From positions 1,281,159 to 1,345,158 of the forward strand of contig CALNYX010000017.1 in assembly GCA_942490925.1 (NCBI GenBank): DNA of 64,000 nucleotides, written 5' to 3'. The notes beneath the pieces were generated by a model. It was not told the origin of the DNA. It made no database searches and was given only the letters and a program-made list of their open reading frames with translations. Positions 34,150 through 36,858 of the stretch are shown one piece after another. The stretch is from an uncultured Chlamydiaceae bacterium. Lineage in GTDB: Bacteria > Chlamydiota > Chlamydiia > Chlamydiales > JAAKFR01. The translations under genes were made by a program, and so were the position numbers. The number at the start of each line of letters is the position of its first letter. Position 1 is the stretch's first letter.

Positions 34150-36858
34150 TCAACCCACTCTAGCTTGGCTACCATATTCTTTGGGCGCGGTGTAAAGGCC
34201 CCACTTCTTCTTACTCGTCCCATCTAGATAGGGTTTCCAAAGTGTGAGTGGCTCTCCTTCAAGAGTTAATGCATCAAATGTCCATAACTCAAGTAGATCA
34301 GTTCCAGGATTCACGATAAAGCCAAATCGCTTATGCACCCAATTCGTGTCAGCAAATAGGATAGGCGCTGGAAATGCGAGACCTAATTTTTGCATTTGTT
34401 GCCAAATCCTCTGGGGATAAGCAATATGAGAATGAATTTTACCAATGACTTGCATCACCAATGCTGTTGCAATGCGCCTCAGATCTTGTGCACTTAGTAT
34501 GACCTGTGGCCGCACTTCCAATGTATCAAACTGGTCGAAAATTTTCTTAGCGATCGTATTATCAATCTCTTCCATTGAATCAAAGAGTCTTTCGAGATGA
34601 GTGCGAAGCTCATGCTCTGGAAAAAATGGGATCGAGTAGTAGAGAATTCCATCTAACTGTTGCATCAGCTGGGTGTACCCGCTGCCTTGCTGCAGCCAAC
34701 GCTCATAGGAGAGGCTCGATGCAATACGTCCTCGAAATGCATAGGTCGTTAATTTACCAACGCTTTCTCCAAGAGATTGCTTGACAATTGGCTGATATCC
34801 TTCAGGAATTTTCTCTATGAGTTTCTTAATAACAACATCTTGCATCTGTTTGTCTAAACGGTGGCGATCAATAAATGCATGCATTGGTTCAATCCAGTAA
34901 TCACGCACCCAGCTATACGTATAAGCATCGTTATCCCAACCCTCTCGAAACGGCTCCCATCCTGGCTTTACTAAAAAAGCATGGGTTGGAGAATGAGCAA
35001 GTAGAGCCTGCTCTTTTTGATCCTCAAAATGACGTTGCACACTCAGGGGAAGTTCTTTCAATGTATCAAGCAGAAAAACAAGCAGTTCCATTTCATTTTC
35101 GATCCATCGAGAAACTTTTTTGGGCTCTTCCCCACTGCTATAGTAATAAGAAACCAAAGTTTCCATCGTGCCACCCGAAATATAAGCCCAAGGCTTTCGG
35201 GAACTGCGCTGCTCTCCATGAGACCGAGCTAAACGCTCAAAGGAGCTTTTGATAAACATCGGATCCTTAATCGTCGTCACAATGGCGGTTACTAGAGCTG
35301 TAAGCTCCACCTGCAAGCCTTTAACTTCATCTTGCTGGGCAAGCTCCACTTCAGTGGCAATGAAAAAGGCGCTCAATGCTTTTAGATAGTCATCTTCATT
35401 ATGAATCCATGTCCAGAGATGTGTGCTTTTTCTACCATGCTTATACAAGAGCCGAAAACCTGCAGGACTATCATTGTATAGCTCTGCAATCTCGTGCAAT
35501 TGAGCGTCATAGACTTCTTGGAAGTATTCAGGAAATTTCTCTATATAAAACCGAACAAGAAATGGATAGAGCGATCCAATACGTCGTCCCCTTTCATAGA
35601 TCTCTTCACGTTCACTGATGATCCGATTCAGCGCGTGGCGCTGCATTTGATATTCAGCATGTAGCCATCCGACTTCCCGCTCTGCGCTTGAACGCTGGAC
35701 ACGCCCCTCTAAAGACTTAACATGCGCGAAAGTGTGGTCGTAGCGGGATTGATACTCTTCGAGTTTTTCATTTTGAATATCAATTCGCTTTTGAATCTCA
35801 CGTTGGACATTTTCTCCAATTCCATAGGGTTCACTCGGTTCAATTCCAAGACTGGCATAGAGATTCCACTTTGTAAAGTCAGCTTTTACCTCGGCGAAAG
35901 AGGCAAGTGTAAACTCCCAGGCCTTAAGCAAGGGGTTGTCTGTCATTGCTTTAAAAGCTGTTTTAGCCTCTTCTGATGAAGTGAGCTTGCTCAATATCTG
36001 AGCAAAATTCAGAACAGTAAACGGCTTATCAACAAATGGCTCCAACACATCTTGTAGTTGTTTTGGATCAATTCTAGCTGCTTTACATGCTGCAATAACT
36101 CCAGGGGCACGTCCTAATTTCTTCCATGGTTCTTTTCCTAATTGACCCACAAAAAAGGGAAGATAGAGATTACCAGAGCCTGTTGTCGCGCTCAAGGGGA
36201 CAAGGTATTCAACACCAGCTACCACGCGTTTAAGAGCTCCGATGCCAAATAATTGCGAGATATCAGCCAAAAATTGTAGTGGCTGTGTCTGTTGAATTAA
36301 GATGGCTGGAGCTGTGGCAAAACAGGATCCCACATTTTGACGTAGTGATACGAGCAGAGCTGCAAAAGCGGCTTGTCTTGCATGCGCATCTGTGAGTCTG
36401 ATTTTTTTGCTCAAATTCAAAGAGTGACGGATGAGCTGCTCAAGTCCATAATGATTAGTCGGTTTGCTAATCCGCTTGAGGGCATAGGCAAACTCTTGCT
36501 CATCATAAAAACATTTTAGAGTCGTCAAAACATGCTTGCGACGCGAAGCATCTTGCTCTCTGTTGGGTCCGAGGGGGTACAAATTGGATTGTAGCAACTC
36601 AATTGCAGAAAATAAACTCTTGCGATCGATCTCTCCTTTTTCATCGATCAGTGCCTTAGCAAGCTTTTGTGCTAAGTAGAGATTTCGCCACGACCAGCTC
36701 TCTTGAATTAACGTCTGATCAAATGCTGTGCAGAGCTTTAAGTTTTCACCGCAAATAATTGCTTCTAGCGGCTCCTCAAACTGCGTTTCTCTTACTAATT
36801 TTTCAAAAACTCGCGTGAGAAAAGTGGCCCGGTCGATAGTAGGAAAGTCATTTTTCAT
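34150..36858 (-). CDS. Large (902 aa) conserved hypothetical protein, possible papain-fold cysteine peptidase-like
   Basis: Start set at ATG 36858, which forms an ATGA overlap with the upstream stop. The longer Cys/Arg-rich extension to 36966 lies inside the upstream gene. Candidate catalytic motifs are RQNVGSCFATAP (Cys codon 36324-36322), SPTHAFLV and GWDNDAYTYSW. It is the third gene of the rsbU operon. Confidence 0.78.
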   Translation of the reverse strand: MKNDFPTIDRATFLTRVFEKLVRETQFEEPLEAIICGENLKLCTAFDQTLIQESWSWRNLYLAQKLAKALIDEKGEIDRKSLFSAIELLQSNLYPLGPNREQDASRRKHVLTTLKCFYDEQEFAYALKRISKPTNHYGLEQLIRHSLNLSKKIRLTDAHARQAAFAALLVSLRQNVGSCFATAPAILIQQTQPLQFLADISQLFGIGALKRVVAGVEYLVPLSATTGSGNLYLPFFVGQLGKEPWKKLGRAPGVIAACKAARIDPKQLQDVLEPFVDKPFTVLNFAQILSKLTSSEEAKTAFKAMTDNPLLKAWEFTLASFAEVKADFTKWNLYASLGIEPSEPYGIGENVQREIQKRIDIQNEKLEEYQSRYDHTFAHVKSLEGRVQRSSAEREVGWLHAEYQMQRHALNRIISEREEIYERGRRIGSLYPFLVRFYIEKFPEYFQEVYDAQLHEIAELYNDSPAGFRLLYKHGRKSTHLWTWIHNEDDYLKALSAFFIATEVELAQQDEVKGLQVELTALVTAIVTTIKDPMFIKSSFERLARSHGEQRSSRKPWAYISGGTMETLVSYYYSSGEEPKKVSRWIENEMELLVFLLDTLKELPLSVQRHFEDQKEQALLAHSPTHAFLVKPGWEPFREGWDNDAYTYSWVRDYWIEPMHAFIDRHRLDKQMQDVVIKKLIEKIPEGYQPIVKQSLGESVGKLTTYAFRGRIASSLSYERWLQQGSGYTQLMQQLDGILYYSIPFFPEHELRTHLERLFDSMEEIDNTIAKKIFDQFDTLEVRPQVILSAQDLRRIATALVMQVIGKIHSHIAYPQRIWQQMQKLGLAFPAPILFADTNWVHKRFGFIVNPGTDLLELWTFDALTLEGEPLTLWKPYLDGTSKKKWGLYTAPKEYGSQARVG

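Follow-up and report, generated by a model that had tools for sequence, protein, structure and literature searches.

What does the large protein encoded directly behind a pair of RsbU-like genes in chlamydiae do, and is it tied to the partner-switching pathway that its position calls to mind? The question is raised by a 64,000-nucleotide stretch of the genome of an uncultured Chlamydiaceae bacterium (GenBank assembly GCA_942490925.1, contig CALNYX010000017.1, positions 1,281,159 to 1,345,158 of the forward strand; hereafter, the window), in which a minus-strand gene at positions 34150-36858 encodes a protein of 902 residues. An initial annotation had proposed that this protein is a papain-fold peptidase with a giant insert, wired to the RsbU pair. 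By sequence and position, it is the orthologue of Chlamydia trachomatis CT590 (CTL0853), and on balance we favor the view that it is a papain-type Cys-His thiol enzyme of a new chlamydia-specific family, built on a large, insert-rich scaffold; that it is specifically a protease we hold with less confidence. The candidate active site (Cys179, His626, Asn839/Asp837, and Gln174) turns a "hypothetical protein" into a testable hypothesis.

The gene, defined as an open reading frame (ORF) with its translation, comprises 902 codons and ends with the stop codon at 34150-34152. The frame is open from 36966 to 34150, and the N-termini of homologues favor initiation at the ATG at 36858, which yields the 902-residue product, over 36966. 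Conservation was counted over 256 homologues (alignments of 120 and 137 sequences), with identities down to 30%. Motif I, RQNVGSCFATAPA (residues 173-185; 36304..36342, on the minus strand like all motifs given here), is invariant in both alignments and contains the candidate nucleophile, Cys179 (codon 36322-36324), preceded at a distance of five residues by Gln174, a candidate oxyanion-hole residue, and followed directly by Phe180. Motif II, SPTHAF (residues 623-628; 34975..34992), contains the candidate general base, His626 (codon 34981-34983), which lies 447 residues past Cys179, close to the roughly 440 given in the initial annotation. Gln174 and Cys179 are each found in 255 of the 256 homologues, the sole exception at both positions being one N-terminally truncated sequence, and His626 is found in all 256. 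Cys179 is the only conserved cysteine among the 5 in the protein and His626 the only invariant histidine among its 23, a degree of conservation much beyond chance expectation. The Gln, Cys, and His that the initial annotation had read in papain order, with an aromatic residue directly after the Cys, are all present, and the conservation check it had called for found them essentially invariant.

The third catalytic element appears to lie elsewhere than had been proposed. The Asn was originally sought at position 643, within GWDNDAYTYSW (residues 640-650; 34909..34941). This position varies among homologues (S, N, D, T, E, and others), and both structural models described below place Asn643 beside a short helix (residues 637-642) and not at a strand end; the candidate was rejected on its conservation and helical context. 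As for the Trp of the same segment, Trp641 is conserved, together with Tyr648, within the CT590 family, but not in a remote paralogue family, where the profile alignment program hhalign finds no counterpart of the segment. An Asn directly followed by a Trp does exist, but at 839-840: judged by conservation, the third motif is Asp837-x-Asn839-Trp840, overlooked in the initial annotation and contained in Motif III, FADTNW (residues 835-840; 34339..34356), with Asn839 as the candidate third catalytic residue and Trp840 as the candidate shielding Trp. Asp837, 211 residues past His626, is kept in 254 of the 256 homologues (the exceptions being one Asn and one Ala), whereas Asn839, at a distance of 213 residues from His626, and Trp840 occur in every homologue whose sequence covers the region. 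The residue set of C1A peptidases, namely Gln, Cys, His, and Asn with Trp, is present in this order as Gln174, Cys179, His626, Asn839, and Trp840.

The same residues recur in the remote paralogue family. A search of the bacterium's own genome with the family profile returned 2 weak matches (expectation values, E, of 1e-6 and 3e-5) to tandem ORFs of 899 and 726 residues, which lie outside the window, at a distance of about 1 Mb (G000:C17:287250-289946 and 290257-292437; loci L119-L121 and L130). The CT590-family order of motifs recurs in both, as RQ-x5-C-Y-A, S-x-x-H-A-F, and [GA]-D-x-N-W, and across the paralogue family the motifs read Q...C[YF]A, H[AS][FWL], and G/A-D-[LTM]-N-W. Alignment of 12 paralogue sequences with the CT590-family alignment by hhalign gave a probability of 99.45% (E = 4e-22) over 616 columns at 14% identity and paired all three motifs. 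Arg144, Gln174, Cys179, His626, and Asn839 are invariant in both families (His626 and Asn839 in 10/10 paralogues), Asp837 is found in 9/10 and Trp840 in 8/10 paralogues, and the only further positions in common, Leu310 and Gly562, are nonpolar. With the exception of Arg144, the surviving polar residues thus correspond in type to the papain-type catalytic set (Gln, Cys, His, Asn/Asp, and Trp), and the profile comparison indicates that the CT590 family and the paralogues form a superfamily. The coiled-coil arm of the CT590 family was left unaligned by hhalign and has no counterpart in the paralogues. The latter, about 820-950 residues long, are confined to the chlamydial family of the window (9/120 genomes), evolve fast, and have Pro/Ser-rich N-termini; a Waddlia-like genome has an extra paralogue of its own, and Chlamydia-like genomes have one copy only. 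A word-based homologue search with the 726-residue paralogue found only itself. The tandem paralogues may be exported versions of the enzyme.

Structure prediction sets the motifs in a context reminiscent of papain. We used two confident AlphaFold2 models, one of the full protein, built from a 20-sequence alignment (predicted local distance difference test score [pLDDT] 86.6; predicted template modeling score [pTM] 0.84), and one of residues 446-902 (pLDDT 83.5). In the full-length model, helix 182-191 begins 3 residues past Cys179, which is part of a loop; in both models, His626 stands at the start of hairpin strand 627-630, and Asp837 ends strand 833-837, after which the chain continues into another antiparallel sheet (strands 844-849, 856-861, 868-870, and 885-889). 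Papain-type centers of clan CA are set in a helix-plus-sheet context, and the predicted arrangement, with the Cys where a helix begins, the His opening a strand, and the Asn/Asp where a strand ends, followed by the Trp, would suit such a center. Mean-field direct-coupling analysis (DCA) of 245 sequences (effective number about 207) yielded plausible contacts within the sheet and from the Cys helix to helix 647-665 (F835-L858, G846-F861, S623-T865, Q190-I656, and A185-P604). Between the Cys and His segments sits a two-helix antiparallel coiled-coil arm (residues 347-445; 35524..35820, minus strand; model helices 347-389, 393-428, and 430-445), which is kept in every CT590-family member, no homologue being without it. 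The scaffold further includes an N-terminal helical domain (residues 1-150), a variable helical insert (residues 228-305) that is missing in short homologues, and, separating the His and the Asp/Asn strands, a partly dispensable helical block (640-830, about 190 residues); the model has no disordered N-terminus. Thiolase/ketosynthase and alpha/beta-hydrolase readings of the G-S-C-F-A segment were also considered and rejected, given a predicted structure that is mostly helical with short antiparallel strands and the order Cys-His-Asp/Asn.

The assignment to CT590 derives from the Chlamydia-like genomes (1.0-1.3 Mb), in which the homologous ORFs are about 970 residues long and about 30% identical to the 902-residue protein, single-sequence searches giving E values of 1e-80 to 1e-90 and profile searches 1e-249 to 1e-264. 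One such locus reads eno, rsbU, a 607-residue ORF without a Pfam match, the 963-residue homologue, and convergent sdhB/sdhA, in agreement with the published CT587-CT593 arrangement. Given the same locus order and similarity over the full length to the Chlamydia protein that follows rsbU and its paralogue, we regard the 902-residue protein as the CT590 orthologue, and the large uncharacterized Chlamydia ORF that the initial annotation had pointed to behind the rsbU paralogue is CT590. The gene was found in 166 of 200 sampled Chlamydiota genomes, two families (f6 and f11) being mostly without a copy. A protein collection clustered at 90% identity contains 930 homologues, all from Chlamydiae and all unnamed or "hypothetical"; there are 854 family representatives at 50% identity, and 371 loci in a species-level genome set, all chlamydial except for a few mislabeled bins and including Simkania, Waddliaceae, Parachlamydiaceae, and Protochlamydia.

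CT590 itself has been described as a Chlamydiales-specific hypothetical protein (a "Chlamydiales signature") of 954 residues with mid-late expression (PMC1403754). Transposon mutants (ct590::Tn) are viable, with progeny at 24 hours post infection lower by almost 2 log (PMC6686042); BlaM and GSK reporter assays gave the protein the score "not secreted" (PMC13251465), and a test of its type III signal was inconclusive (PMC3931295). In the papers that we consulted, no functional or catalytic-residue proposal for CT590 was found, and the neighboring CTL0852 is still termed "uncharacterized" in a 2026 review. The 902-residue protein has neither a signal peptide nor a transmembrane segment (maximum Kyte-Doolittle hydropathy over 19 residues, 1.4) and is predicted to be soluble. 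Taken together with the "not secreted" score and the progeny loss of the mutants, this suggests that CT590 matters inside the bacterium.

Upstream of the CT590-family gene lie two genes for membrane proteins, each with a HAMP and a PP2C/SpoIIE domain. The distal one (38729..40639, minus strand; Pfam SpoIIE, E = 4.8e-49) encodes a membrane sensor phosphatase of the RsbU type in which the PP2C motifs are intact, and the proximal one, rsbU' (36855..38732, minus strand; SpoIIE, E = 4.8e-36), a degenerate RsbU paralogue, probably a CT589-like pseudo-phosphatase. Aligned to the upstream RsbU, the paralogue retains GGDFY and GDASGKG, with YSDGVTE replaced by YTKGLVE and QHDDIT by QEHEVV, and has therefore lost two of the four PP2C metal-binding Asp motifs, which bears out the earlier label "degenerate" and mirrors the reported lack of metal-coordinating residues in CT589 of C. 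trachomatis (PMC4552016). The start codon of the CT590-family gene overlaps the TGA of rsbU' as ATGA (36855-36858), the coupling that had been noted initially, and an identical overlap joins the two RsbU-like genes (38729-38732). A promoter and terminator scan of this rsbU-rsbU'-CT590 operon found nothing above shuffled expectation. Downstream, on the same strand, follows a gene for a porin-like outer-membrane protein of 484 residues (32250..33704; weak Porin_5 match, N-terminal signal-like segment). A 161-nt hairpin repeat (33944-34104) lies between it and the stop codon of the CT590-family gene and could serve as a terminator or keep the two genes apart.

The product has a mass of about 103 kDa and is kept by most Chlamydiota; it is predicted to be soluble and to stay inside the bacterium. 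Under the favored reading, Cys179 would act as its nucleophile and His626 as its general base. Asn839 and/or Asp837 would orient His626, Gln174 would contribute to the oxyanion hole, and Trp840 would shield the His-Asn pair. We infer that the catalytic segments, although dispersed over a scaffold made up of the helical domain 1-150, the coiled-coil arm 347-445, and the helical block 640-830, meet in space; the presumed chemistry would be the breakage or transfer of a peptide, isopeptide, or other amide bond in the substrate via an acyl-thioenzyme intermediate.

Several results weigh against this reading. Searches of Pfam, NCBIfam, and PDB sequences with the single protein, all 20 alignment members, and the family profile gave no match even at E up to 10, the output being coiled-coil noise only (ING, SMC-like, and influenza HA2 stalk). 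Nor did the papain fold posited in the initial annotation emerge from Foldseek: with the full model and with residues 446-902, nothing in PDB scored better than E = 0.19 and no papain-like structure stood in the top 50, and the searches of the full model against PDB and BFVD and of residues 446-902 against PDB returned coiled-coil or helical noise only (best E = 0.09-0.2), for example, SMC arms and HP0958. Local structural alignment probably fails on a core that is broken up by inserts of 100-200 residues, and we therefore do not take the Foldseek result as a refutation. The kinship with the C1B (bleomycin hydrolase/PepC) branch that had been suggested was not recovered either. Using six PepC-type and three C1A sequences, one of the latter from this genome and all from chlamydial assemblies, hhalign gave a probability of <2% to C1A (PF00112) and C1B (PF03051, 0.1-0.5%) with the full-length, insert-free concatenated core, and merged superfamily profiles alike, the C1 profiles being small (3 and 6 sequences); Pfam gave no match to C1B, nor to C1A at E up to 10. 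The best local C1A match, QNVGSCFATAP versus RNCGSCYAFSA over 11 columns, is suggestive and not significant, and the sole alignment that pairs the C1B His motifs (P = 0.3) lays PepC ENSWG on the nonconserved FREGW. Within the model, pLDDT falls to 65 in the Cys179 loop, and in DCA the His and Asp strands are linked by no more than a weak reciprocal F628-A836 signal (z = 3.5), the strand-pairing sum test being not significant. Finally, the Gln-Cys spacing is 5 residues, versus 6 in papain.

The lack of peptidase family matches is also what speaks for a nonprotease with the same Cys-His-Asp/Asn center, that is, a transglutaminase-like cross-linker, a deamidase, or an acyl/amidotransferase. The order Cys...His...Asp and an aromatic residue and Ala after the Cys fit transglutaminase-like cores as well, and Asp837 is nearly invariant alongside Asn839. 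We consider such an enzyme unlikely, if the most credible of the alternatives: the PF01841 transglutaminase core gives no Pfam match to the protein and nothing at 1e-5 in a six-frame search of the whole genome, and both the Asn-Trp pair and a Gln ahead of the Cys are features seen more typically in peptidases of the papain and calpain types. A nonenzymatic scaffold or adaptor, in which a metal of structural or sensory function, or a redox signal, is bound by Cys, His, Asp, and Asn and the arm mediates protein contacts, seems rather improbable to us. It would account for the missing fold and profile matches to any thiol enzyme and for the large conserved coiled coil, and Cys, His, and Asp are common metal ligands; metal sites, however, usually need 3-4 ligands that are close in sequence or conserved as a set, the co-conservation of the Gln before the Cys and the Trp after the Asn, even in paralogues at 14% identity, is hard on metal binding, and the paralogues retain the residue set without the coiled coil. 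Least probable of all the readings considered is that of an effector secreted to act on the host, for instance a cysteine protease of the deubiquitinase type. Several cysteine proteases are known among the effectors that chlamydiae secrete, and the remote paralogues, with their N-terminal composition and rapid evolution, look as effectors often do, but against this stand the two reporter assays on CT590 cited above, the ordered N-terminus of the model, and the fact that the gene is single-copy and slowly evolving in chlamydiae of very different hosts.

The chain of ATGA overlaps through rsbU, rsbU', and the CT590-family gene invites the proposal that the protein belongs to the Rsb pathway (RsbU/RsbV/RsbW), as an output, the role put forward in the initial annotation, or as a regulator, recruited, for example, by the upstream pseudo-phosphatase. 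The three genes are contiguous in 13/13 genomes from the window's family in which a match was obtained, and in most of the Chlamydia-like genomes they are neighbors; rsbU-null mutants (PMC13463777), like ct590::Tn mutants (PMC6686042), are impaired in progeny production. Linkage to RsbU is, however, limited to these two families, and conserved co-occurrence and linkage across the lineage was not found: over the 80 best related loci, a divergent thrS is the upstream gene in 37 and RsbU in 20. The two genes are unlinked and far apart in some families (G044 and G064), RsbU occurs without a CT590-family gene in others (f6 and f11), and the CT590-family gene without a full-length RsbU in still others (f5 and G043); their phyletic presence is independent, differing in both directions. 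In four Chlamydia-like genomes (G003, G006, G010, and G012), the CT590 homologue adjoins the rsbU pair on the opposite strand (convergent), so that co-transcription with rsbU cannot be general even in that family, and about 580 bp separate it from the CT589-like gene in the Chlamydia-like locus. The most widely conserved neighbor, more so than rsbU, is the porin-like gene, downstream on the same strand in 53/80 loci in RsbU and thrS contexts alike. The case for an Rsb output comes down to gene order in two families, a slight argument for a functional connection with partner switching, and we judge such a role improbable. A picture that joins these strands, in which the core member of a Chlamydiota-specific papain-like protease superfamily docks by its coiled-coil arm on RsbU' (CT589) and cleaves a partner-switching component or developmental regulator, as an irreversible Rsb output that times the conversion of reticulate to elementary bodies, while the paralogues are exported, would be more improbable still.

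Other features of the window and the genome deserve mention. A TLC nucleotide transporter (28835-30328) is among the chlamydial hallmarks of the window. A plus-strand gene (30472-31425) encodes a 317-residue protein with a Fic/DOC domain and a C-terminal MerR-type helix-turn-helix, an unusual fusion of an AMPylase-type and a DNA-binding domain, and a minus-strand gene (31406-32260) encodes a 284-residue protein matching glycosyltransferase family 17 (E = 2e-25), the start of which overlaps the stop codon of the porin-like gene; this family is best known from eukaryotic N-glycan GlcNAc transferases. The C1A ORF of the genome (G000:C57:59252-59974; locus L031) is interrupted mid-domain by a hydrophobic insertion of about 29 residues, which resembles a read-through intron and suggests that its 86-kb contig may be eukaryotic (host) contamination. 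A chlamydial assembly of 3.6 Mb (G208, loci L024-L036) contains six PepC/bleomycin-hydrolase-type and two C1A genes, either a lineage-specific expansion or contamination; 19/20 other relatives have neither PepC- nor C1A-type genes, and the genome of the window alone has a C1A gene.

CT590 is among the few large proteins that are common to nearly all chlamydiae and found nowhere else, and infectious progeny of its transposon mutant appear with a strong delay. The remote paralogues, which share its candidate active-site residues, point to an enzyme superfamily peculiar to chlamydiae, in which one member is housekeeping and others are lineage-specific and possibly exported. Should the link to rsbU and rsbU' in Chlamydiaceae prove functional, the protein would moreover be a new type of component for the sole partner-switching system that these pathogens have.

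Compared with its counterpart in C. trachomatis, the gene occupies the same eno-rsbU-rsbU' order, whereas its product is shorter than CT590, missing part of the variable insert 228-305, and the locus differs in the ATGA overlap with rsbU' and in the porin-like gene that follows in place of sdhB. With C1B/PepC enzymes, the protein has in common the long Cys-His spacing (294 residues in the six fetched C1B sequences), the T-H-A-[MF] His motif, and the predicted cytoplasmic location, but 213 residues separate His from Asn, as opposed to 21 in C1B. The likeness to C1A papain and clan CA extends to the types and order of Gln, Cys, His, Asn, and Trp, and in the models to a Cys that precedes a helix and to a His and an Asn on strands. 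The spacings are very different: Cys-His and His-Asn distances are about 134 and 16 residues in papain, and 447 and 213 here. Large helical and coiled-coil inserts set the protein further apart from C1A enzymes, as does the lack of a signal peptide or propeptide. Locally, its motifs resemble those of the fetched C1 sequences (GSC[FW]A, THA[FM], and N-(S)-W) and those of C1A and clan CA enzymes (GSC[WF]A, HA[VF], and, where a strand ends, N-(S)-W). The profile comparisons do not permit the 902-residue protein to be assigned to C1A, C1B, or the transglutaminase core, but it may still function as the enzymes of these families do.

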